Positions 18,611-42,780 of a stretch of DNA of 42,780 nt are shown piece after piece. Source of the stretch: a virus (Duplodnaviria > Caudoviricetes). Position numbers and translations under genes: made by a program. Under the pieces are notes generated by a model, which was given only the letters and a program-made list of their open reading frames with translations, was not told the origin of the DNA and made no database searches. The stretch covers positions 1 to 42,780 of the IMG/VR virus record IMGVR_UViG_3300030376_000768, one strand, 5' to 3'. The stretch's first letter is position 1; the number at the start of each line of letters is the position of its first letter.

Positions 18611-21600
18611 ATGGAAAAAGAAATTGACAATGGTTTTGCTCCAGGACAACCAATACCTCCATATAACCCTATGGGAATGGTTAGTCCTGATTCAGTAGAC
18701 GAAGTAAAAGATAATGCTTTTTATACTACTGCTTTAGAAGCACTTAGTGGTAGTGAAGATGCATTTGAAAATACTGATAAAGTTTATGACGATATTATAA
18801 ATGAGTATAGTACTCTTGGTATGTCTGCTACTGTAAATAATGCTAAACAAAGAGCATTAACAGAACAAGATATTAGTACTAAAGAAACTATCGCAGGTTT
18901 AATAGAAGATGAAACTGTATCTGTACAAGATAAACAAAATATATTACAAGCATATACTTATGGATTTCAATTACCACAAACTTTAAAAGATAAATATATT
19001 AATACCATATCATCTATGGAAGCAGCAACTAGTACTGATGATGAAGTAGTAACATTAGATATGAGTATTGATAAACAAAAGTTAGTAGACTCTGCTATGG
19101 AAGTAGGTACAACTTTAAGAAAAAAGATTATAGATTTTAAACAAGAGTATCCAGAAAAAGATGTTAATGAAGAAGTAGCTACTAAATTACTACGTAGTAT
19201 GGCTTCATTACAACCTGGGTTTACTCAGTTTTTAGAAATGGATGAAGATACTTTAGAAGAAAATGATGGTTTCTTTTATGGTGTAGGTGTAAATGTATCA
19301 CAACTAATTAACTCTTTACTTGTAGAGTTACCTATGTATGTTACACAACTATTATCTGTTCCTGCAGGTAAAACAAATGCTTTAGATGGATTACTATTAG
19401 AAGATGATGAAAAAAGAAAAGCACTTAAAAACTTTACAGAAATAAGAAAATATGTTGAAGAAGTTTATGCATCTGGAGATAAAGAAAAAGTATATGGTAT
19501 ATTTAATGACTATCAAAATATAGGTGTACTTGGTGATGTAGCTTTAAACTGGAAAGACTTTTGGCAAACAGTATTTAGAGTAGGTGGTTTAATAGCTACA
19601 GAAGAAGAGTTTGAAGATTATATACGTCAAGAGTCTATTACTATGAGTACTTTTGAAACTATTGATGATGGTTTTATGTGGGTAGCTAAAAAAGCTAGTC
19701 CAGATAATCCTGAAGCAGTTAAAGTACCTCTTGAAATTGCATCATTCTTTACTTTATGGGGACTTAAAAAAGGTAAAGGTTTAGTTAGAAGTGGTACAAG
19801 AAGATATTCATTAGGTAGGTCAGGTTATGATAGTTCTGTTGCTAAGTTTACTGAAGCTTTAGATAAAGCAGAAATTCAAGCAGAAGGACCTATTAAATTT
19901 CAACAAGATTCTAAAACTCCATTAACTTGGCAAGAAGTATTTATAACTGAAAAAAATGCACAAGGTAGACCTATAGTAAATCAAAATACTTTAATTGATA
20001 GAGTTAATGATATACCTTTAAGAAGTCCAGAACAGGCTACACGAGTAGCTAATCCTAAAGTAGGTAAAGAGTTAGATATAGAAATTGTTGCAGATGAATC
20101 TGGAAATACAGCTAAAAGAGCTGGAGTAAAAAGAACATCTATTATAGCTTTAGCCTTTGCTCCTATCTTAGGTGGTATATTAAATAAAAGTAAACATGTA
20201 GACTTACATGAATGGTCATTACAAAAAAGAATGTATGAAAGAATGTCTAATGATTACTTTACTAATCAAGGATTCTTATTCCCAGAAAAAAGAAAGACAT
20301 GGATTAGAGATACAGACAATGTATTAGATGATATATCTGCTGGTGTAGATGTATATCAAAGAAACTCTGATAGTGTATTTTCTAGTAAAGACTGGGGACT
20401 AAATGCTTCTATTGTATTTAGTAAGAATGCAGATGTACATTATAAAAATATAGGTGAAGTTACTGATGCTTATAATGTTATTGTAGAAAAAATTAAAGAC
20501 TCTGGTAAAAAAGACTTTGAGGTAATCATAGAACATGTAGATGCTAATGATGCTGTTATAAAATCGTTTAAAACTTTAGATGAACTAAATGCTTATCCAC
20601 AATTTAAACGTCCAGTTGACTCAGTTAAAAACTTAGAAGCAGAGAAAAAAAGATTAATAGCTGAAGCTAGTGAAGCTAGAAAGATTAGACTTAATAAGAA
20701 AAGAGTTGCAGCTGAAGCTGAGTTACAAGGTGTAACACCTGATGCTTGGTTAAAACAAGCTACTAGAAATGCACAACTTAGAGAAATAGAACTTAAACAA
20801 ATTGAACAGAATCTACAAGTAGCTAAACAAGTAGAAGGTAAACGTACTCAAGAACCTAATATAAGAATTAGAATTAATAGAGATGCAGATTATTATGATT
20901 CTGCACAACAGATAACTGATGGTTTTGCTAATCCACCTAAAAGAGGATGGTGGTTTACTAAAGCATTGTTTGATAGTGATATTGTTTGGAAAGGTATAGC
21001 ACACTTCGGTACAATTAATCGTAAGATGGAAGAAGTAATGCATAGTGCTGGTCTACGTGGTGTAGGTTGGATGAAAGAATCTTTACAATCATTACAAAAA
21101 GATATTAATAAACTAAGCCAGTCAGGTAGAAATGATATAGCTTTACTATATAAGAAGTCTTTAGACTATAAAGATTACTTAGATGTAAATGATATTACTA
21201 CTATGTTAGATAGACCTAACCTAGACTTAGAGACTGCTTATCTATATCAAAAGATTATTACTAAAACAAGAGCTTTAAATCAATTTAGATATAATGCAGA
21301 AAATATTTATGAATTAAATAGATTAAAAGCAGAAGGATATACTGGTTCTTTTAAAGTTATTAGAAGAGACATGGAAGGTAATCCTGTTGTAGATAGTAAA
21401 GGTAAACAATATACTGAAAATGTAGTAGTTAAAGAGCTTACAGATGCAGAAAAAATATTAGGTACAGAACAAGTATTTGACTATAGTAAGAATTCAGGAG
21501 TAGATAATCGTTTTGTTGGTAATCAACCAATCTACAGATTAAGTAAAATACATTTTGATAAAGATGGTAAAGCTTATGAGTATGGTGTTTTTGGTGCACA

Positions 21601-24283
21601 ACAACAATCAGTAATACCACAAATAGTAATACCTAGTCGTACTGGACATATGCCTGCTATTATGAAAGGCTCTCATTTTGTAAGAATGTATCCAAAAGAG
21701 TTTACATTAAATGGTATTACAAGAACATATGAGAATCATATAAAGAATGGTGGTAGCTATGAGTCTTGGATACAAGAAATGAAACCATATCAAAGAGCTG
21801 TAATGGTATCTCCTACAGCTATTGGTGCAGGTAGATGGCTTAAAAATGATTTAAATTCCTGGGCTAGAGAAGCTAATATAGATATCAATGCTAATTTCTT
21901 TGAAGTAGAAATAGCTAGTGAACTAAGACGAGCAGATAGAATAGAAGCTAATGTTATTAGAGAACAAGCTATGTCAGCTTCTAGACAACGTACTGAGTTA
22001 CCTATAGCTAAGGCTGTATATGAAGACCCACTAGCATCTTTTGTTGTTACAACTGAAGCTAATGGTGCAAGAGCATATATGCAACCATTACTAGCTGAGT
22101 ATAAAGCTAGATATATGAATCAATATAAAGATAAACTTGTAGAAGTTTTAGATGACTTTCCTAAAGATGAAACACAAATTAAAATGAAAGATGGTTTTGT
22201 TGATTTAGAAAATGTAGCTTTAAAAGAATACAGACAGATTATGATATTAGAACAAGGATATCAACCTAACTGGATTGGTAGAGCTTTACAAAAAGGTGCA
22301 GGAACTATAGCTAAATATGCTGAAGACTCAGCAGCTAATACTAAAGTACCTTTGTTACAAAAAGCTATAGAAAAAGCATTACCTGCAATATATGAAACTG
22401 CTAGAAAACCTAGTTTATTACAACAAACTCCAATGAGAGTTACTTCTATACTTAAGATTCAATGGCAAATACCTTGGTGGCATTGGATGATACAAACAGC
22501 TAACTCATGGGGACATTTAGCAGTAGGTGGATATGCAGGTTTTAATGCACAATCATTAAAAAACTACATAAAAACAGCTACTGATTCTGCTAGAGTAGTA
22601 CATATGATTACTAGAAATAACATGTCTGCTAAGAAGTATGCTAAAGAATTAGAAGCAGGGTTAGAGTGGATGGCAGAAAATGATGCTAAGATATTAGGAA
22701 AAACAGATGATATTTTAAATTTATCTAAAGAAGATATAGCATTAATAGTTAACAATGGACGTAGTTCTAGTTTCTTTCAGATAGCTGACCATACATTTGC
22801 TAAGAACTTTTGGAGACAAGGACCTAAACAAATTAGTGCAGGTAAGACAACAACGTTTTTTGGTAAAGCTAATGAAAAAATAGGTCAAGTAGGCTTTGAA
22901 CAAGGCGAGTTAATGGGTAGGGTAAACACCTGGATGGCTGCTAGAATAGATTGGGTACAAAAGAATCCAGGTAAAAACTGGAGAAGTGCTCAAGCTTTAG
23001 ATGAGATTACTGCTGGTGCACGTAAGTTAGCAGGTTCTATGGACCAGTATGGTGAAATGGGTATACAACGTGTACCTATCCTAGCTACATTTGCACAGTT
23101 CAGTTCATTTATATTTAAGTCATCAGAAGGTCTATGGAATACATCAGCTACACCATTTAACCCTAGACAGATGGCAGCATTAACTGCATGGAATACAGCA
23201 GTGTATGGTGTTAGAGGTGGTGTTTGGTATGGTATGGGTACACTAGTATTTGACCTATATAAACAATTATTTGGTGAAGATGTAGCAACAGAACAAATAA
23301 ATAAACTAGATGATTTGTCATTATTAAATATAGTAGTAAATGGATTTAGTGATGCTATGTTACCTACATATGACGAAAATGGTAATTTACTTAAATCTGA
23401 TTTAGAGTTTAATTTAAGATTCTCACCTATGGGTGCTGATATGCCACTTGGTGGTTATGGTGCTATATGGGAGTTCTTGTTTGGTGAACATGATGCTGGT
23501 AATATGGCGTTTGGTCCATCAGGACAGTTAATAAAAGATATAGCAGGTAAAGATGGAACACTTGATTTGTTACAAGCTATATGGTCTAAACCTACAAGTG
23601 ATATATCACAGACAGAAGACCAGATTTTAGCTTCATTAGAAGCTGTAGCTAAACTATCTGGACTAACTAGTGGTATTTCTAGAGTAGTCTTGATGAATTT
23701 ACTTGAAGATAAAAGAAGTAAACTAGGTCAATTACAAGGACAAAATCTTACTAAAGCTGAGAAATGGTTATGGGGTTGGTCTTCAGTACAAAGTAAAGCA
23801 GAAAGATTAGTTTTTGAAAACTTTGCTAATGCTAAAGATATGAAAACAGCTAACAAAGAATTAGCTGAAAGTATATATAAAGGTATGATAATGACTCTAG
23901 GTAGAAATCCTACAATGTCTGAGTTAATTACATTACAAAGAGGACTTAAGTATACATTATCAGGTTCTGACTATTTAGATGAAGAAAGATATAGAGAAAT
24001 TATTAAGCTTACTACACAAATTAATGAGCGTAATAGAGAGTCTATGTTTGAAAATATCTATTCAAGAGCTGTAGCAGATTCTAAACGAGGTGAAAGAGTA
24101 CATCCTAGTGTTATTGCTGAGTATGAGAATTTAGTTGAAATATATAAACAAAATGGTAATACTGTACAAAAAGAATCTTTAGAGCATATATTAGCTATAT
24201 TAAAATCAACTAACGCATCTAGAAAAGAATCAGATGTATTAAAAGAACGTAAGGAAAGTTTTGAAAAAGGAGAAATGTACTAA
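18611..24283 (+). CDS. Large internal virion (ejection) protein, 1890 aa
   Basis: Size, helical character, position among ejection genes; no catalytic motif recognised. Confidence 0.65.
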   Translation: MEKEIDNGFAPGQPIPPYNPMGMVSPDSVDEVKDNAFYTTALEALSGSEDAFENTDKVYDDIINEYSTLGMSATVNNAKQRALTEQDISTKETIAGLIEDETVSVQDKQNILQAYTYGFQLPQTLKDKYINTISSMEAATSTDDEVVTLDMSIDKQKLVDSAMEVGTTLRKKIIDFKQEYPEKDVNEEVATKLLRSMASLQPGFTQFLEMDEDTLEENDGFFYGVGVNVSQLINSLLVELPMYVTQLLSVPAGKTNALDGLLLEDDEKRKALKNFTEIRKYVEEVYASGDKEKVYGIFNDYQNIGVLGDVALNWKDFWQTVFRVGGLIATEEEFEDYIRQESITMSTFETIDDGFMWVAKKASPDNPEAVKVPLEIASFFTLWGLKKGKGLVRSGTRRYSLGRSGYDSSVAKFTEALDKAEIQAEGPIKFQQDSKTPLTWQEVFITEKNAQGRPIVNQNTLIDRVNDIPLRSPEQATRVANPKVGKELDIEIVADESGNTAKRAGVKRTSIIALAFAPILGGILNKSKHVDLHEWSLQKRMYERMSNDYFTNQGFLFPEKRKTWIRDTDNVLDDISAGVDVYQRNSDSVFSSKDWGLNASIVFSKNADVHYKNIGEVTDAYNVIVEKIKDSGKKDFEVIIEHVDANDAVIKSFKTLDELNAYPQFKRPVDSVKNLEAEKKRLIAEASEARKIRLNKKRVAAEAELQGVTPDAWLKQATRNAQLREIELKQIEQNLQVAKQVEGKRTQEPNIRIRINRDADYYDSAQQITDGFANPPKRGWWFTKALFDSDIVWKGIAHFGTINRKMEEVMHSAGLRGVGWMKESLQSLQKDINKLSQSGRNDIALLYKKSLDYKDYLDVNDITTMLDRPNLDLETAYLYQKIITKTRALNQFRYNAENIYELNRLKAEGYTGSFKVIRRDMEGNPVVDSKGKQYTENVVVKELTDAEKILGTEQVFDYSKNSGVDNRFVGNQPIYRLSKIHFDKDGKAYEYGVFGAQQQSVIPQIVIPSRTGHMPAIMKGSHFVRMYPKEFTLNGITRTYENHIKNGGSYESWIQEMKPYQRAVMVSPTAIGAGRWLKNDLNSWAREANIDINANFFEVEIASELRRADRIEANVIREQAMSASRQRTELPIAKAVYEDPLASFVVTTEANGARAYMQPLLAEYKARYMNQYKDKLVEVLDDFPKDETQIKMKDGFVDLENVALKEYRQIMILEQGYQPNWIGRALQKGAGTIAKYAEDSAANTKVPLLQKAIEKALPAIYETARKPSLLQQTPMRVTSILKIQWQIPWWHWMIQTANSWGHLAVGGYAGFNAQSLKNYIKTATDSARVVHMITRNNMSAKKYAKELEAGLEWMAENDAKILGKTDDILNLSKEDIALIVNNGRSSSFFQIADHTFAKNFWRQGPKQISAGKTTTFFGKANEKIGQVGFEQGELMGRVNTWMAARIDWVQKNPGKNWRSAQALDEITAGARKLAGSMDQYGEMGIQRVPILATFAQFSSFIFKSSEGLWNTSATPFNPRQMAALTAWNTAVYGVRGGVWYGMGTLVFDLYKQLFGEDVATEQINKLDDLSLLNIVVNGFSDAMLPTYDENGNLLKSDLEFNLRFSPMGADMPLGGYGAIWEFLFGEHDAGNMAFGPSGQLIKDIAGKDGTLDLLQAIWSKPTSDISQTEDQILASLEAVAKLSGLTSGISRVVLMNLLEDKRSKLGQLQGQNLTKAEKWLWGWSSVQSKAERLVFENFANAKDMKTANKELAESIYKGMIMTLGRNPTMSELITLQRGLKYTLSGSDYLDEERYREIIKLTTQINERNRESMFENIYSRAVADSKRGERVHPSVIAEYENLVEIYKQNGNTVQKESLEHILAILKSTNASRKESDVLKERKESFEKGEMY

Positions 24284-30031: not shown

Positions 30032-30196
30032 TTATGACCGACCTTTCGGTTTCTTTTTGACCTTATCAAATTGTTTATCATTAGGTTTGGAATTAAAGAT
30101 TCTGTCCCATCCCTCTTTATACTTATCACTTGGTACTGCAGTTTTTAATTTTGCCCCAGTAATCTCGTAATCGTTTGTATCATTAGTCCCTGGCAT
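30032..30196 (-). CDS. 54-aa hypothetical protein
   Basis: Manual translation; KYKEGWDRIF motif; AAGGA RBS. Confidence 0.6.
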   Translation of the reverse strand: MPGTNDTNDYEITGAKLKTAVPSDKYKEGWDRIFNSKPNDKQFDKVKKKPKGRS

Positions 30197-33740: not shown

Positions 33741-34454
33741 TTAAGTTACGTCTTCTAGGTTACCCCAATTAGTACCTAGTTGTATATCAACCCTCATAGG
33801 AAGGTTGAATTCTTTACCAAATAACTTAGCATAGTTACTTGGGATATCTTCAAAACACTGTTTAACTGTTTCGACTATACTATTAGTATAACATAGTTTA
33901 TCATCAAAGTCAAGCATGATAGAATCATGCACAGTGTTTATTATCTTGATGCCTTCTGTACCTTTAAGTTTATTACGTAAAGATACTCTAGCTATAGCCA
34001 TAAGGTCAGCACCGAGTCCTTGCACAGGATAGTTAAGGATTCGTGTGCGTGGATACTTTACCTTACCCATACTATTTATTTCAGTAGGGTATTGATATGT
34101 CCTGCCAGTTGGCATAGTTAACATAAGGTCTCGTTTGGCATCTGCAAATATTTTGTCGTGCCATTCCTTGAGACCTGTATACTTTTTGTAAAACTGGTCA
34201 ATAACTTTTTGCCAGTAATCTTCATTACCTATATCTTTAAAGTTATTGTCCATAGCATAACTGTATGCACTACCACCGTAGATTAGACGGAAGACAAAAG
34301 TCTTTGCAATTAGTCTTGATGGTAGTGCAAACCTCTTTTGATTGTCCGAGTGCTGGTCAATCTCATTCTTAATTTCTTGTATTGCTGTAGCATCTTGAGA
34401 TAAGTATGTAGCACATACCCATTCTAGAGCTTTAGCATCAGCGTTTAGTATCAT
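33741..34454 (-). CDS. Family A DNA polymerase, C-terminal catalytic part
   Basis: Motif A DAKALE, motif B RLIAKTFVFRLIYGG (Phe at the E. coli 762-equivalent), NYPVQG, motif C VHDS. Confidence 0.92.
   Translation of the reverse strand: MILNADAKALEWVCATYLSQDATAIQEIKNEIDQHSDNQKRFALPSRLIAKTFVFRLIYGGSAYSYAMDNNFKDIGNEDYWQKVIDQFYKKYTGLKEWHDKIFADAKRDLMLTMPTGRTYQYPTEINSMGKVKYPRTRILNYPVQGLGADLMAIARVSLRNKLKGTEGIKIINTVHDSIMLDFDDKLCYTNSIVETVKQCFEDIPSNYAKLFGKEFNLPMRVDIQLGTNWGNLEDVT
33885..33913 (-). promoter_or_regulatory. Sigma70-type promoter inside the polymerase gene, upstream of the SSB gene
   Basis: Minus strand TTGACT-17 bp-TATACT with extended TG, same form as the other promoters. Confidence 0.7.
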
Positions 34455-34455
34455 G

Positions 34456-34692
34456 TTAGCCTCCGCAAGTTGCTTCTACTAACCTGCTGTTATAGTTTGT
34501 TATGATAGCTCTCTTAAGTTCAGACTTAGCTTCATCATCTAATAATGATAACGCTGCGTTAGGACCAAGAGATAGTATCATCTCACCAAATTCTACACCA
34601 ACAAAATGGTGATGAGCTTCTTCTTGTGCTTGTTGTTCTTCAGCTGAAGTTAGCTCGTCTTCTTGTGCTGCTAATATATCATCTCTACTCAT
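34456..34692 (-). CDS. 78-aa acidic protein between the two polymerase parts
   Basis: ATGA overlap with upstream stop, GGAG RBS. Confidence 0.65.
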   Translation of the reverse strand: MSRDDILAAQEDELTSAEEQQAQEEAHHHFVGVEFGEMILSLGPNAALSLLDDEAKSELKRAIITNYNSRLVEATCGG

Positions 34693-35855
34693 GTTGTTTC
34701 TCCGTATCTAGTTGTAAAGAGAGTCTTAATCTCTCCATCAAAGTTTTGTAAGTTAGGCTTACTACTACTTAGCCTACCTGTTTTTGCTACACATTGATTG
34801 AGTTGACCATGTATAATATCTTTATGCCAGTTCATCTCATCAATTAGTTTAACTAACCCATGATAGTATGTAGTCTTTCTTTTCTCTAGTGTAGCACGAG
34901 TTAGTAATGTTTGCAATATATCTTTGGCTTCTGCATTACCTTTGAGCTTACGCAATGTATCCTCATTGGTACTGTAGAATCCTTCTTTCTTAAGTTCAGT
35001 TCCTTCCAAAGGTTTTACTCTTTGGGGGAATTCTTTGTCTCTTTCATCCCATTTATACTTAACTTCGCCTGAGCGTGAGCCAGTTTTAAAATGTCCGATG
35101 GGGCGTTGAAAACGCTCTTTAATAGTCCCACCGTAAAGAAAAGCAGAAAGATGCTCCCCAGAATTGGGATTAAAACTATCGTAAGCATGATAGTTAAAAA
35201 GCTTTTTGTTAAGTTTGTCGATTTGTTCATCAAGTTCATCTCCTAATACTTGTGATTTATCATAGTCAAATTTAAGACCATTGAATTCTATCTCTTGTAG
35301 ACCAAGTAAATCTTGGTTGTGCAAAGAGATTAGCCGCCTCAGTTGAGGCTGGTCGGCTAACTCTTGCATTTGTAATGACATTACTTGTTCTGTTAGTTCT
35401 AAGTCTTTCTCTAGATATTCAGATAGTATGTCTTTTGGTACTTTGTTTGTATCAATTCCATTCTTCCAGTAGTTCTCTTTGACTTCATCTAGCTTAGTGC
35501 CCAGGTCATAGTACTCAGATACACCATTCAATGATGGGTAGCTCTGTGTTTGACTACGCATTATGAACTCTGTTAACTGACAGTCCCAGATTCTTTTGTT
35601 AGCAAAGGTAATACCATACCTAGCTAACCAATGTAAATCAAATTTAATATTGAACCCTACAAGCACATCGCACTTATCCACGGCTAATTGGATTTGTTTT
35701 AGTGATTCCTTGTAGGGGTCAACGGAGTATTCTATATCGTATATAGTTTTCTCGTCAGCCGTTAGTAATCCAACCATACAAAGTTTATTTGTTTGGTCAA
35801 ATGGATTACCTTTGTTACTAATAGTTGTTTCTACATCTAGTACTAAGTAACTCAT
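34689..35855 (-). CDS. Family A DNA polymerase, N-terminal part (3'-5' exonuclease and thumb)
   Basis: LDVET, GFNIKFD, YLEKD exonuclease motifs; FNPNS; TGRLSSSKPNLQN. Confidence 0.92.
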   Translation of the reverse strand: MSYLVLDVETTISNKGNPFDQTNKLCMVGLLTADEKTIYDIEYSVDPYKESLKQIQLAVDKCDVLVGFNIKFDLHWLARYGITFANKRIWDCQLTEFIMRSQTQSYPSLNGVSEYYDLGTKLDEVKENYWKNGIDTNKVPKDILSEYLEKDLELTEQVMSLQMQELADQPQLRRLISLHNQDLLGLQEIEFNGLKFDYDKSQVLGDELDEQIDKLNKKLFNYHAYDSFNPNSGEHLSAFLYGGTIKERFQRPIGHFKTGSRSGEVKYKWDERDKEFPQRVKPLEGTELKKEGFYSTNEDTLRKLKGNAEAKDILQTLLTRATLEKRKTTYYHGLVKLIDEMNWHKDIIHGQLNQCVAKTGRLSSSKPNLQNFDGEIKTLFTTRYGETT

Positions 35856-38190: not shown

Positions 38191-38219
38191 ATTATATCAT
38201 ACTTTTGACTAAAAGTCAA
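38191..38219 (-). promoter_or_regulatory. Sigma70-type promoter P5 for the replication genes
   Basis: Minus strand TTGACT-17 bp-TATAAT with extended TG. Confidence 0.8.
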
Positions 38220-39084
38220 ATGAATGATTGTAACTATAAGTCTCAGCATCATGCCATGAATTTACTACTGACACAGGAATGTCAGAATAAACAACTGGGT
38301 CTCGATAAGAACCATCAACTAATGTAACTGTCTTATCTTTTTCATTAACTGATTCTAGTTCTAGCCATTCACCTTTCTTAATTACTACTGATGCATCACC
38401 TATACCGTAGTCATAGTCTTCGTTACAGACAACCCAGTCACCAATTGCAAAAGAGCAGGAGCTCTTGGCTGCCAGGGGCAGCGAAGTGCGATGCGTATTT
38501 TGCCTACCATAATTCATATATGGATACTTAGCAGTTTTAATTGGTTCAGGTTTCTTGTAACTGTTGTTACTGTACCATACACCATCATTCCAATGACCTT
38601 TCTCTTCATTCATGATACGATAATTACCATGTCTGTCAAGAAAGACTAGCTTACTATAGCCGATAACATTTTCAATAAGCTCAACAATTGGGTCTTCAAA
38701 TAGTCCCATGTTACCATGCTTACTTACTATCTTTTTGAGGATAGTGTTGTTGAATTGGATGGTATCGGATTGTTTATCATCACCGTAACCAGAGATGATG
38801 CCATTATGAATAAACCCAAGACCACTATTAACAAGGAACGGGTGGCAATTGTTTTTATCAATCGGACCGTGCGTTTTAATGCGAAAGTGTAAAAGTACCT
38901 GTTTGTTCTCATGTGGTTTATACTCCTTATAAAATTGTTTGAAAGTAAAGTAACCTTTCTTTACATGTAGTTCTTTATCTTCTGCAAACATAAAGCCTGC
39001 ACCATCTGGATTAGAATCATAACATCTTTGTAATGTAGTCTTACTAATCTTTTTGTTTTCTGATTTCATTATTGCTATGCACAT
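38209..39084 (-). CDS. Class II (Ntn) glutamine amidotransferase
   Basis: N-terminal Cys2, NPDGAG, HFRIKTHG, NCHPF, HNGII, SDT. Confidence 0.88.
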   Translation of the reverse strand: MCIAIMKSENKKISKTTLQRCYDSNPDGAGFMFAEDKELHVKKGYFTFKQFYKEYKPHENKQVLLHFRIKTHGPIDKNNCHPFLVNSGLGFIHNGIISGYGDDKQSDTIQFNNTILKKIVSKHGNMGLFEDPIVELIENVIGYSKLVFLDRHGNYRIMNEEKGHWNDGVWYSNNSYKKPEPIKTAKYPYMNYGRQNTHRTSLPLAAKSSCSFAIGDWVVCNEDYDYGIGDASVVIKKGEWLELESVNEKDKTVTLVDGSYRDPVVYSDIPVSVVNSWHDAETYSYNHSFDF

Positions 39085-40721
39085 ACTGTTGACTCCTTAA
39101 TGTAGTTATATAATTCTTTGAACTCTTTTTTAGTGTTGGTTAACCATGATACAAAAGATTCAAAGTGAGTTTGTTGCTTCAATGATACACTATGTATTGC
39201 AGGTTTGCAATACTCAATCATTGCTTTTACAAATTGCATGCGTATGTTGAACTCTTCTTTGTTAGCAGGAGTTGCAAAAATACGCAATTCAATTGTCTTG
39301 TTGTTGTTAAGATTAACAAAGTTATATCTACCAACATATCTATCTTTGTATGTAACACCATAAGGTGTCTTGATATCAAAGGTAGGGTCAGAGGTTTGAT
39401 AGTTAGTAGAACCACGACCAGCCATCAGTTTAACAAAGTCTTTGTTATCATCACGATTCATAAACTCAACAAGCTTACCAGCACCTAGTTGTGTAAATGC
39501 TGTACGACTAATGTGTACATGCATACCACATGATTCATGTGGATGTATATACTCTGGTAAGTCAGTCAAGAATGAATCGTATCGTGCTAGATGAGATGTA
39601 TAACCTGCTGGTCTAGATACTAACTCAAAACCATCACGAATACTACCATCATCTTTCATTAGAGCATGACCAAACATACTATCACCAACATACAATCGAC
39701 CAGCTCTACGCTTGTCTACTTGGAACTCCATCTCAATACCAAGATAAGGTTCATTAGCTAGTTTGTTGTGCTTGTCAAAGCCCAATGTTTCTTCTACTCT
39801 ATGAGAATAATTATGTACTCTGTAGTCACGACCACAACATTCAACACACATATCATCTCTTGTTTCTTCTTCAACGCATTTTGTATTACATTCAATGCAT
39901 CGAACTATATTAACATCACGACTATCATAACAAGTACCATCAAGCATTATCTCATGTTCAAGTAAGAATGTATGACTATTTGCATCATACTCATAACCGT
40001 ACTCATTTGTTAGCATTTCACTAGTCATATGTATACTACAGAACTGTGTTTTACCAGACAAACTAAACTGAGTCATTTGCGTTCTATGGTTTATCACTTT
40101 GGTAAGTGGACATTGATAGAACCTAACTTCATGGTCAACATACGAATTAATTTTATCAATCATACTTGGATTGAATAAATCATCTTGATAATTATTAGAT
40201 AGATGGTCAATCAATGTATTCATCATTAGTTCTGTAGTATGACTAGCTCTAGCAAAGCCTTTGACTCGACGAATCAAATGATTCTTGAATCCAGACTTTA
40301 ACCTACCATCTTTGTACTTCATTTCTAATGGATTGAGTTTGTAATATATAGTATCAAACATAGTACGATTGTCATGGTACTGACTTTGTATCCAATCTGA
40401 TACATACTTGTTTATACTTTGATTACGATAGACATAGATATGTGTATCATTCCATACTGCTAAAGCTAATTCAGGTTTATCCATCAATGCTTTACTAACG
40501 CTGAATTCTTCAGACATAAGTTTAAACACAGGTATTTCTAGATGTGTTCGCTTAGGTCCAACAAAATTACTTGGATGATAATCATATATACGTTTTCTAT
40601 GAACAGCACGTTTGATGTATAAGTCTTTGGTAAGGTATAACTTATCACCTTCTTTGACTAATGCATCGCTATCTGCTATAGAATACTTCTTAACAAAAGT
40701 TGTATGGCTTATAGGTTTCAT
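39075..40721 (-). CDS. Amidoligase (COOH-NH2 ligase type 2) with long N-terminal extension
   Basis: GIEMEF, DGSI..GFELVS, SCGMHVH, RY, TIELRIF; start moved to ATG 40721 (ATGA overlap, AGGAG RBS). Confidence 0.85.
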   Translation of the reverse strand: MKPISHTTFVKKYSIADSDALVKEGDKLYLTKDLYIKRAVHRKRIYDYHPSNFVGPKRTHLEIPVFKLMSEEFSVSKALMDKPELALAVWNDTHIYVYRNQSINKYVSDWIQSQYHDNRTMFDTIYYKLNPLEMKYKDGRLKSGFKNHLIRRVKGFARASHTTELMMNTLIDHLSNNYQDDLFNPSMIDKINSYVDHEVRFYQCPLTKVINHRTQMTQFSLSGKTQFCSIHMTSEMLTNEYGYEYDANSHTFLLEHEIMLDGTCYDSRDVNIVRCIECNTKCVEEETRDDMCVECCGRDYRVHNYSHRVEETLGFDKHNKLANEPYLGIEMEFQVDKRRAGRLYVGDSMFGHALMKDDGSIRDGFELVSRPAGYTSHLARYDSFLTDLPEYIHPHESCGMHVHISRTAFTQLGAGKLVEFMNRDDNKDFVKLMAGRGSTNYQTSDPTFDIKTPYGVTYKDRYVGRYNFVNLNNNKTIELRIFATPANKEEFNIRMQFVKAMIEYCKPAIHSVSLKQQTHFESFVSWLTNTKKEFKELYNYIKESTVCA

Positions 40722-40882
40722 ACGCAACTCCTTTTAATGAATTGAAAGACATCTTTAGGTGGCTTTTTATAAGCCTTAACCACTCTAAAGTCTGAACCTA
40801 TACGTTTAACACGAATACAATTATCCCAGCCATCTTTCCAGAAGACATCGAATAAATTGTTTGTTACATTTTTGACTACCAT
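40718..40882 (-). CDS. 54-aa basic hypothetical protein
   Basis: Manual translation MVVKNVTNNLFDVFWKDGWDNCIRVKR; GGAG RBS. Confidence 0.65.
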   Translation of the reverse strand: MVVKNVTNNLFDVFWKDGWDNCIRVKRIGSDFRVVKAYKKPPKDVFQFIKRSCV

Positions 40883-41143: not shown

Positions 41144-41423
41144 TGTATCTCCAATTGTCACAGTTGTGAAATAAGGTTTTTGCGAAAGGTTTAATTCTTG
41201 TAACTCCAGGACCGTAATGATATACCTTTGGAACACTATCTACTGGTAACTCGTTGTTAGCTTTGTCAGCATCTTCTTGAACTTTTGCAATATACTTTAC
41301 ATAGTCAACATCACTGTTCTTAAGATACTTTCGGATACGCCAACCTTTACGGAAATCTTCATCAGATAATTCATCAGCTATTTTAAATGACATAATTGAT
41401 TTATTATACAATTCTAAAAACAT
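41136..41423 (-). CDS. Early hypothetical protein
   Basis: AGGAGTATATTATG initiation region. Confidence 0.7.
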   Translation of the reverse strand: MFLELYNKSIMSFKIADELSDEDFRKGWRIRKYLKNSDVDYVKYIAKVQEDADKANNELPVDSVPKVYHYGPGVTRIKPFAKTLFHNCDNWRYND

Positions 41424-41454
41424 AATATACTCCTAATAAATTGAAAAAAGAAAA

Positions 41455-41508
41455 GGTAATTTTTTAATCACCCTTCGCCCTGCGATGGGGGTGATTAAAA
41501 AATCTACC
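41455..41508 (-). promoter_or_regulatory. Long intergenic stem-loop (terminator or RNase III-type site)
   Basis: About 24-bp stem with small bulges, followed on the minus strand by TTTTCTTTTTT. Confidence 0.65.
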
Positions 41509-41656
41509 GAGTAGTATGACTATCTGGCTTAACATAATACTTCATAACATAATCATACGGAACATTGTGTATTGATATCAATGTTTGTACTTTAGCTAGA
41601 TAAGATATATCTTTTGGGACACTAAATTTATTGAATAATGATTCTAATTCATTCAT
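41504..41656 (-). CDS. 50-aa early hypothetical protein
   Basis: Manual translation MNELESLFNKFSVPK...; same AGGAGTATATTATG initiation region as the next gene. Confidence 0.65.
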   Translation of the reverse strand: MNELESLFNKFSVPKDISYLAKVQTLISIHNVPYDYVMKYYVKPDSHTTR

Positions 41657-41766
41657 AATATACTCCTATATAAAAAGAAAAAAGCAATCTGCTCTAAACG
41701 GAAACTCCGAGTCACTATGCTATAGTAGAATAATGACCGACCACCATTGTGAGAAATGTGCTAGCC

Positions 41767-41791
41767 AAAAAAAAAGGGGGAATAATCCCCC
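41767..41791 (-). terminator. Intrinsic terminator after the first early gene
   Basis: Minus strand GGGGGA-TTAT-TCCCCC followed by T9. Confidence 0.85.
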
Positions 41792-42598
41792 TAATTCTTA
41801 TGATACTTTACCTGCATCTGCTGAAGTTGAAGTAGTTGCGATTTCAATTTCCGCAGGACCAGCATTTTCTTTGCGCTCCCACTCTTTCTTTCTGGTTTCG
41901 CGTAATTCTGATATAGCATCCGCAATGTTAGTCATTACTTCCCGTTGCTGTTTAGAACCTCTACCAGCTAGATAAATTGCAGAATCAAGACACTGTTCTG
42001 CAATCACAAGTAGTTGACCAACAGATTTGCCTTGTTTGATACTATTGATTGAATCAAAAAATGCATTAGTTTTTGAATTACTCATTCGTAATACTCCTAT
42101 AAAATTGGCGAAATTGCCATGATTAAAGGTTCATAGGTTATGTGTGATTGTACAATTAGTTGTGGTTATCACTTGTGATAAGCAGAAGTAATTTTACAAT
42201 CATGCATGTTCTATGAAACTATTAATCATGAGCAATTTGGACAATTTTCTAGGAGTATTACGTGATTGAATGAGTAATTCAAAAACTAATGCAACGGGTT
42301 ATTTTTTGATTCAATCAATAGTATCGTGGGTTAACAAGGGAATTCTGTTGGGCTTTACTACTTGTAATTGCATAACTGTGTCTTCGTTTCTAGCAATTTA
42401 CGACGCCTGGAAGAGGCTCTAAAGAGTTACGGAAAGTTGACTGACATGAGGACAATGCTATACAGAATTACACGATACCAGAAAGATTAGAGTGAGAAGT
42501 AAATAACATGCTGGTACGAGGACGAAATTGATTCGCAACTACTTTGACCTCAGCAAATACTTATATATAAAGTCTCATAATAATTAGGGGGATTATTC
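41780..42598. repeat. Giant imperfect inverted repeat / predicted rod-like hairpin
   Basis: 42175-42598 aligns by eye along its length to the reverse complement of 41780-42172; apex TTATCAC-TT-GTGATAA at 42166-42181. Confidence 0.95.
41798..42085 (-). CDS. 95-aa helical protein, first early gene, encoded in one arm of the giant hairpin
   Basis: AGGAG RBS, intact frame, terminator right after stop; no family recognised. Confidence 0.75.
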   Translation of the reverse strand: MSNSKTNAFFDSINSIKQGKSVGQLLVIAEQCLDSAIYLAGRGSKQQREVMTNIADAISELRETRKKEWERKENAGPAEIEIATTSTSADAGKVS

Positions 42599-42690
42599 AA
42601 ACTTATTTTAGGGATACATATTTGGATAATCTTTCTGTGGGTAAACATAAATAAATCATATACTTAGGAGAGGTATAGTCTATAGATTAT

Positions 42691-42780
42691 CATTGCAACT
42701 AATAAATATATTAGTTTTCCGTCTAGATTTATTTATTTTACCCCTACCAGGGGGTTTTGAATGCTTATCATATAGATGAA
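42691..42780 (+). repeat. Direct terminal repeat, right copy
   Basis: 89 of 90 positions identical to 1-90. Confidence 0.9.

Follow-up and report, generated by a model that had tools for sequence, protein, structure and literature searches.

Hepatitis delta virus (HDV) and the Obelisks form unbranched rods of about 0.8-1 kb that carry an ORF on one arm, and both of their polarities fold. Eukaryotic hpRNA and miRNA genes (Drosophila hpRNAs, plant MIR genes) were born by inverted duplication of their target gene, and hok/sok, P22 sar and P1 c4 are short exposed RNAs whose pairing extends over tens of bases. Type I toxins are usually shorter than 60 aa and hydrophobic. Bacterial and phage genomes normally rid themselves of long inverted repeats. 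In the available parts of the respective papers, integron attC sites display 1.24 versus 0.39 G:T per strand, which favours folding of one strand (PMC5027507), Frpo/ssi promoters were sought in regulatory regions of 50-350 bp with -35/-10 boxes, the ORF not being covered (PMC11541004), and inverted repeats of 251-637 bp in Roseophage SIO1 were judged misplaced or misassembled and as lying away from the true ends (PMC6775973).

This study describes a tailed-phage locus in which a whole protein-coding unit faces a degenerate inverted copy of itself. The initial annotation knew of no such phage element and none was found in the literature searched: a title-level search, with most subscription papers outside it, returned no precedent for a full-length gene mirror. 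Likewise, the available main text of the paper on the related isolate MEP401 (PMC10580990) does not mention any hairpin, inverted repeat, terminal repeat or palindrome. Each class compared below has a defining feature that is either missing here or beyond a sequence-level check.

The window, i.e. the whole stretch of 42,780 nt that was analysed, is a near-complete tailed-phage genome (97% complete according to the virus record) with structural genes on the plus strand (280-27360) and early/replication genes on the minus strand. It was classified as an OM43-type zobellvirus, with a TerL 94.9% identical to that of MEP402 and 94.5% to that of MEP401, two Methylophilales phages of the Zobellviridae whose hosts are marine OM43 bacteria (PMC10580990, in part). 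A terminal direct repeat occupies 42691..42780 (89/90 identical to 1-90). Cultivated cobaviruses, which form a related subfamily, are described in the available sections of PMC6775973 as having direct terminal repeats of 159-173 bp and genomes of two arms pointing inward. Since the annotated ICBM1/ICBM2 repeats start with sequence similar to that around 42780, we infer that 42780 is the physical left end. The rod would then lie 183-1001 nt from this end, its outer edge being at 183 nt, which supports the earlier proposal that it adjoins a probable genome end. A conserved GC hairpin within the terminal repeat (42741..42753, plus) is terminator-like on the plus strand in the window, and its U tract is absent in MEP401 and MEP402. 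The phage also encodes a 5'-3' exonuclease and an endonuclease I.

Self-BLAST of the whole window returned a single long match in inverted orientation (41754-42623, 76.1% over 914 columns, E 1.8e-164); the runner-up among non-terminal matches had an E value of 8.5e-4. Together with the predicted fold, this bears out the collinear inverted copy initially noticed between 41780-42172 and 42175-42598. Segment 41780-42598 folds as a single unbranched rod on either strand (as RNA, -414.5 kcal/mol and z -32.8 for plus, -405.4 kcal/mol and z -35.7 for minus; as DNA, -256.6 kcal/mol and z -26.8 for plus), none of the 20 shuffles made in each case being as stable. Read on the plus strand, the ORF arm (41780..42172) is the exact antisense of the leader, the ORF and the 5' half of its terminator, and the mirror arm (42175..42598, plus) is a degenerate, sense-like copy of the leader, the ORF and the terminator 5' arm, with no conserved reading frame. 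A 50-codon plus-strand frame does start at the copied ATG (42270-42422); it was not kept in relatives, which ruled out a conserved mirror-encoded peptide. The arms align with 332 matches and 60 mismatches. Several details given at the outset proved accurate: many mismatches are transversions (40/60), and the first 48 coding nt are matched save for one bulge, which measures 8 nt. Multi-base insertions were said to lie mostly on the non-coding arm. This holds for the window (37 inserted bases versus 6 on the coding arm), L002, L034 and L036, but not for relatives L001 (11 versus 25) and MEP401 (8 versus 38).

The arms meet, as claimed, at TTATCAC-TT-GTGATAA (42166-42181), which is modelled as 6 bp with a 4-nt loop. 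This apex is part of a conserved cassette (42155..42192, plus) whose plus strand displays a CUUG loop along with three G-G mismatches. The cassette is letter-identical in the window, L001 and MEP401, and the ORF-less phages MEP402 and L016 have variants that were encountered in rod-bearing loci too. Two apex cassettes, one with a single stem and one with a two-hairpin tip, were found swapped among lineages (window, L034, L003, L030, L016), and exchange was also recorded between rod-bearing and ORF-less phages.

The 95-aa ORF (41798..42085, minus) is the first gene from the inferred left end, in the early/replication arm. It is preceded by an AGGAG Shine-Dalgarno (SD) sequence (42094..42098, minus), 8 nt 5' of the ATG and paired in the predicted rod, and followed by an intrinsic terminator (41767..41792, minus) whose 5' arm pairs with the mirror; the mirror ends at the terminator loop in 7/8 aligned loci. 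The SD sequence, the terminator, a dN/dS of 0.13-0.24 in 7/7 pairs and the existence of homologues (18 close, 29 at profile level) indicate a real gene. Just 5' of the SD sequence, a small leader hairpin (42106..42119) forms an alternative to the rod; it is kept in relatives with altered stems and broken in the mirror copy. Proteins of the family measure 95-126 aa and comprise three soluble helices. The model of the 95-aa protein displays three helices and a disordered C-terminal tail (AF2 pLDDT 77-81), and this tail carries a conserved SADxGK-type motif. Within the protein family (A5), the C-terminal 10 residues are the best conserved (SADxGK/AV-type ending), which suggests a linear motif binding a host protein, or a degradation signal. 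No informative match to the 95-aa protein was obtained in Pfam, PHROGs, PDB sequences, Foldseek PDB or the ESM Atlas; VIA-align reached a best Z of 7.1 against generic helical hairpins, and the sole Foldseek viral match was an uncharacterised relative, UFOVP369_26. In one record (L004:569-816), the ORF is 37 nt short and frameshifted while the mirror is full length, through an assembly error or a natural break; it was entered in the rod presence count only.

Related loci were drawn from IMG/VR, metagenomes and GenBank. The ORF family occurred in 19 distinct related records, three of which are cut at contig ends, and L035 was left out with only 10 nt of upstream DNA. The rod was present in all 18 others, including isolate MEP401; several of these are near-duplicates, so that they amount to about five deep lineages. 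The most distant is the MEP401 gp01 subfamily (P0020, P0024), whose proteins are 30-34% identical to that of the window. In every full-length locus the rod spans leader to terminator, and the arms are 68-78% alike across rod-bearing loci. None of these 18 records carries the ORF without a mirror arm, the finding that would have spoken for a decaying duplication. An assembly artefact was ruled out by the occurrence of the rod in 18 other records from separate assemblies, the isolate included, and by arms that are only 68-78% alike. Two candidates were set aside during the survey, namely the inverted matches of L007, an AT microsatellite, and L048, an unrelated sigma-like protein excluded from the ORF family.

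Close relatives MEP402, L016, L023 and L025 lack the ORF, as judged by HMM with the left-end region covered in all four, and none displayed an inverted repeat above 134 nt. Three of the four keep a stem of about 130 nt at the same place, some 100-130 nt before the first gene. As ORF-less relatives have this stem only and ORF carriers the full rod, the long rod appears as an extension of an older short stem that travels with the 95-aa ORF family. The leaders of ICBM1, ICBM2, ICP2 and CRP-4 were devoid of a long rod.

The ORF-less leaders are themselves GC-richer, hairpin-rich and non-coding (end and start of L006, i.e. MEP402; L016:3080-3711; L023:2700-3341), with 300-nt z-scores of about -3 to -9 and GNRA/CUUG loops on the antisense strand. 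Their z-scores are similar on both strands (genome background -1.3/-1.5 +/- 2), strand preference is weak by energy, and antisense was favoured in two of three short rods. They may be structured ncRNAs or end elements; no Rfam match was obtained for those of L049 (same contig as L016) or L023. In several relatives (L002, L031-L034, L036-L038), the stretch separating the rod from the inferred end contains a second, weaker inverted repeat (60-240 nt, 58-72%), at about 510-750 nt 5' of the ATG; none was detected in the window.

A clear relationship was observed between each mirror and the gene it faces. Mirrors best match the CDS of their own lineage (0.70-0.84 versus 0.43-0.80 off-lineage), and mismatches are largely held in common by close relatives (55/71 between the window and L002, 39/66 between L039 and L041). 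Mismatch sharing exceeded the permutation null in 6/10 lineage pairs, the apex being excluded. It did not in the window/L039 pair nor in 3/4 pairs with MEP401, so the MEP401 mirror could have had a separate origin. Differences in the ORF arm were copied by the mirror in 13/30 cases (window/L002) and 29/56 cases (L039/L041), the opposite pattern being encountered in neither pair. In the 8-locus alignment, 97/259 consensus pairs displayed changes on both sides, against 48.6 +/- 4.0 in shuffles that retain the relatedness among the 8 loci and 15-31 in slid controls. Over five close pairs, sites paired in both members underwent 77 changes, of which 50 were compensatory and 27 were wobble switches. 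Old bulges have been retained, and the bases on either side of them nonetheless follow the ORF. These comparisons argue that mirrors are inherited vertically yet co-vary with their own ORF, i.e. that the pairing is selected. The initial preference for selected pairing over neutral decay is hence supported by vertical inheritance and compensatory change, and a recent decaying snap-back was ruled out by the two-sided changes and by the way the mirror follows the ORF arm. Perfect runs also fall short of random length in two lineages, MEP401 (9 vs 15.9, P 0.001) and L036 (13 vs 19.5, P 0.039); the result is borderline for L001 and L041, and the window, L034 and L039 show no such shortening (Fisher P 0.0008 over five lineages).

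The first reading of the locus differed from ours as to the strand. It had G-U-compatible differences favouring the minus strand across the ORF and a minus-strand (coding) transcript forming the rod. In the window the wobble count for minus against plus is 10 to 6 within the ORF and 10 to 10 in all, which amounts to no bias. In relatives it is strongly reversed, and mismatch types as well as apical loops point to the plus strand, leaving the coding-strand rod without support. Over seven lineages, G-U pairs on plus outnumbered those on the coding strand 201:43, G-G exceeded C-C on plus 45:4, and U-U exceeded A-A 71:35. Plus wobble exceeds minus wobble 136:40 when the CDS is counted by itself, 61:3 in leader and foot, and 111:28 when the count is limited to four deep lineages. 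Only the window's own lineage is without bias (10:10 in the window, 8:6 in L002), and it is because of this neutral exception that the plus-strand preference was initially missed.

Fold energies agree: the plus strand is the more stable in all 15 loci that were folded, the margin being 12-14 kcal/mol for the window and L002 and 80-135 kcal/mol for most others. Perfect short leader hairpins bore GNRA or CUUG loops in 10/30 cases on plus and 0/30 on minus, a count that stands for about six independent hairpins, the background being 6/86 on plus and 0/86 on minus. Such loops are stable in RNA and DNA alike. At four-fold sites in early-arm genes, G+T is not in excess on plus (sense keto 0.52-0.55), which does not support a simple strand mutation bias as the cause of the preference. 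Stabilisation of plus and weakening of minus leave an identical base pattern, which the loop data alone tell apart. Strong folding is predicted for the sense strand as well, at -255 to -406 kcal/mol where the locus is full-length, and this fold would conceal the SD sequence, 5-11 of 12 bases of its region being paired in the sense fold across loci and 11/12 at 42094..42098. On sequence grounds, the plus strand, antisense to the ORF, has probably been selected to fold.

In its general form, our interpretation is that of a gene with its own second strand, and we hold it rather likely that an RNA, or a resected 3' genome end, would rebuild the whole unit as a duplex rod. The specific form that we prefer is tentative and is held at somewhat less than even confidence: the plus-strand rod may be a self-masked antisense RNA controlling the first early gene. 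Template switching between two short palindromes, namely the apex stem, found in ORF-less relatives as well, and the terminator, would have created the rod by duplication, which accounts for its boundaries. A plus-strand RNA would be transcribed whose 5' arm, the perfect antisense of the gene, is shielded by the wobble- and bulge-rich passenger arm. On meeting the true mRNA it would swap partner, as expected since pairing with the mRNA removes every mismatch. The perfect duplex so formed would block the SD sequence and invite RNase III, and the gene would be silenced. A first-entering host-interaction protein, presumed by this scheme to be harmful, would thus be switched off, or pre-empted in a second infection. 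The apex region is the likely place at which the mRNA itself starts or gets trimmed; an mRNA free of the mirror is suggested by the hairpin preceding the SD sequence, an alternative to the rod that relatives conserve and the mirror has lost. We prefer the antisense RNA on the ground that the rod accompanies this gene rather than the genome end and extends over the whole transcription unit. Three further traits are RNA-like: wobble is the largest mismatch class, plus-strand runs that include wobble are mostly not shorter than random, unlike perfect DNA-level runs, and U-U is enriched in multi-base loops (27:8). Against it stand the lack of a conserved sigma-70-like plus promoter upstream of the rod foot, where the region is mosaic between lineages, and the fact that, to our knowledge, the antisense RNAs described so far keep their pairing regions exposed, not hidden. 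Mismatch enrichment counts against it too, since its ranking (GG 2.42, GU 1.51, GA 0.65, UU 0.62; four classes only) fits DNA energies (2.16, 1.51, 0.92 and 0.03, respectively) at least as well as RNA energies (2.18, 3.55, 0.29 and 0.49).

That same ranking agrees with a reading in which the molecule that folds is single-stranded DNA, which we regard as possible but doubtful. The plus strand, which is the ORF template and has its 3' end at the left genome end, would become exposed where lagging-strand synthesis stays incomplete or 5'-3' resection takes place, and would fold back on itself as the rod. By analogy with Frpo or attC, and with similar reserve, the rod might then protect the first gene or restore a duplex template or priming site. 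The same strand bias is reported for folded attC sites (PMC5027507, in part), a DNA fold of -256.6 kcal/mol (z -26.8) is predicted, the rod lies 183-1001 nt from the inferred end, hairpin-rich leaders occur at that end in ORF-less relatives, the two nucleases are encoded by the phage, and a plus-strand promoter becomes unnecessary. Yet the long rod accompanies the ORF family rather than the genome end per se, the right end is without an equivalent long fold, and perfect runs are shorter than random, as though DNA-level pairing were penalised. By inspection, no conserved -35/-10 pair was seen in the apex-proximal duplex: the window has a 9/12 site at 42173-42200, and -10-like hexamers occur in four lineages but not in L036, L039 and L041. 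Nor was a virion RNA polymerase recognised in the phage's 1890-aa protein. The coding-strand rod of the initial annotation would act as a sense leader: a long minus transcript from the left end folds onto the ORF, hides the SD sequence and captures the terminator 5' arm, so that the ORF is silenced and later early genes are read through, while a short apex-proximal transcript expresses the ORF and mismatches are tuned for a weak rod. The stability of the sense rod, its coverage of 5-11/12 SD bases, the mirror's stop at the terminator loop and the needlessness of an antisense promoter all fit. We nevertheless find it unlikely, as functional RNA helices gain G-U pairs, in place of which the sense strand displays A-C and C-C (43 vs 201), and the special tetraloops sit on the opposite strand. 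Its weak promoter-like site on minus (42682-42655) scores 9/12, within chance (14 found vs 11.9 expected), and loses its -10 in L002.

Two other explanations were considered. Template-switch gene conversion could keep a functionless quasi-palindrome similar, strand-biased repair leaving tolerated mismatches; it would mimic compensatory change, the boundaries at two short palindromes fit it, and lineages have visibly traded apex cassettes and pieces of the mirror. Conversion is disfavoured because it would leave long perfect tracts, and observed runs are shorter than random. Bulges that remain while neighbouring bases track the ORF, 18/18 retention within an otherwise mosaic early region and the 27 wobble switches among 77 paired-site changes in five close pairs speak against it as well, and we judge it quite improbable. 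Least probable by far, and proposed by analogy, is a coding rod RNA of the HDV/Obelisk kind, integrated in DNA, that would circularise or replicate and be bound by its own protein. The whole-length unbranched rod with an ORF on one arm, the folding of both polarities and the joint gain and loss of rod and ORF would suit it; ribozyme, RNA family and protein family match are absent, the gene has its own SD sequence and intrinsic terminator, and the element keeps a fixed first-gene position with one copy per genome.

Comparison with the described systems leads to the same distinction between RNA and DNA. The likeness to HDV and Obelisks drawn by the initial annotation stands for the rod shape, since the phage rod is whole-length with an ORF on one arm, and does not extend to a ribozyme, an RNA family or a protein family match. 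Moreover, the phage element has a fixed locus in DNA genomes, including isolate MEP401. The window gave no Rfam match at gathering score (sub-threshold hairpin matches only, in 5 loci), and the protein gave no Pfam, PHROG or PDB sequence match to delta antigen or Oblin, whose models, in the latter case, may lie outside these libraries. A hammerhead-like reading of 41690-41740 was not conserved. With hpRNA and MIR genes the rod has in common an imperfect inverted coding copy, conserved pairing and the contrast between a wobble- and bulge-rich passenger and a target-complementary arm, but it occurs in a dsDNA phage and the intact gene itself is one arm; no Dicer or Argonaute appeared in the phage gene scan. 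As for hok/sok, P22 sar and P1 c4, the analogy would lie in a possibly harmful gene being controlled by antisense or by fold-back. Unlike type I toxin-antitoxin systems, pairing here extends in cis over about 330 bp and the full unit, and the protein is soluble, helical and 95 aa long; at 95-126 aa and three soluble helices, the family departs from type I toxins in both size and hydrophobicity. MITEs and REPINs differ by their dispersed copies, the rod being single-copy in the window, MEP401 and other loci. Like integron attC sites, in the available account (PMC5027507), it is an imperfect palindrome with strand-biased mismatches (G:T, purines), yet it is several times longer, contains a gene and occurs as a single copy, and no integrase was found among the 54 phage proteins scanned. 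Frpo/ssi elements of plasmid leading regions likewise fold back on the template strand of a first-entering gene (PMC11541004, in part), whereas here the whole gene is paired, the phage is double-stranded and conserved promoter boxes were not seen. SIO1 also offers inverted repeats in a zobellvirus, those being judged misplaced or misassembled in the available text (PMC6775973). The rod is thus functionally nearest to a eukaryotic hairpin-RNA gene if RNA and to attC or Frpo if DNA, and resembles HDV and Obelisks in shape only.

The importance of the locus lies in an inverted repeat kept down to about 30% protein identity, with about 330 predicted bp over coding sequence, and, in coastal phages of high abundance, in the joint evolution of a whole protein-coding unit and its non-coding mirror, which bears a clear strand signature. 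If our interpretation is true, these phages would possess a control element of a new class, be it a prokaryotic equivalent of hairpin-RNA silencing or a means of rescuing the first-entering gene by folding back. It would also provide a concrete route from a DNA gene to an HDV/Obelisk-shaped coding rod through one fold-back duplication, with no descent implied. A cultured pair on one host, FZCC0133, makes the identity of the folding molecule and its role directly testable, MEP401 having the rod and MEP402 neither rod nor ORF.

Some other features of the genome were recorded. The probable virion protein of 1890 aa (18611-24283, plus) had no PHROG, above-cut-off Pfam or PDB sequence match. The DNA polymerase is contained in two ORFs with a 78-aa ORF between them (33741-35855, minus), as in MEP401 and MEP402, and early genes at 38209-40727 (minus) include amidoligase and class II glutamine amidotransferase matches below the Pfam cut-off, like those of other zobellviruses. 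The mosaic early region displays a 34-nt direct repeat spanning two RBS regions (41421-41453 and 41654-41687) and a two-way terminator-like palindrome (41455-41508), both of which are possible recombination points for gene shuffling. Finally, motif GTCGGTCAT lies 3' of the terminator of the 95-aa ORF (41733..41741, minus), with a second copy at 30034-30042 (minus). Its spacing and -10 were not conserved, which ruled it out as a plus-strand promoter, and it is probably outside the rod element. This 9-mer occurs in 1-4 copies per genome (L001, L005, L006, L007, L016, L022, L023 and others), almost always on the coding strand of early/replication genes and even in the distant freshwater phage L007, and is a candidate phage-specific regulatory site.
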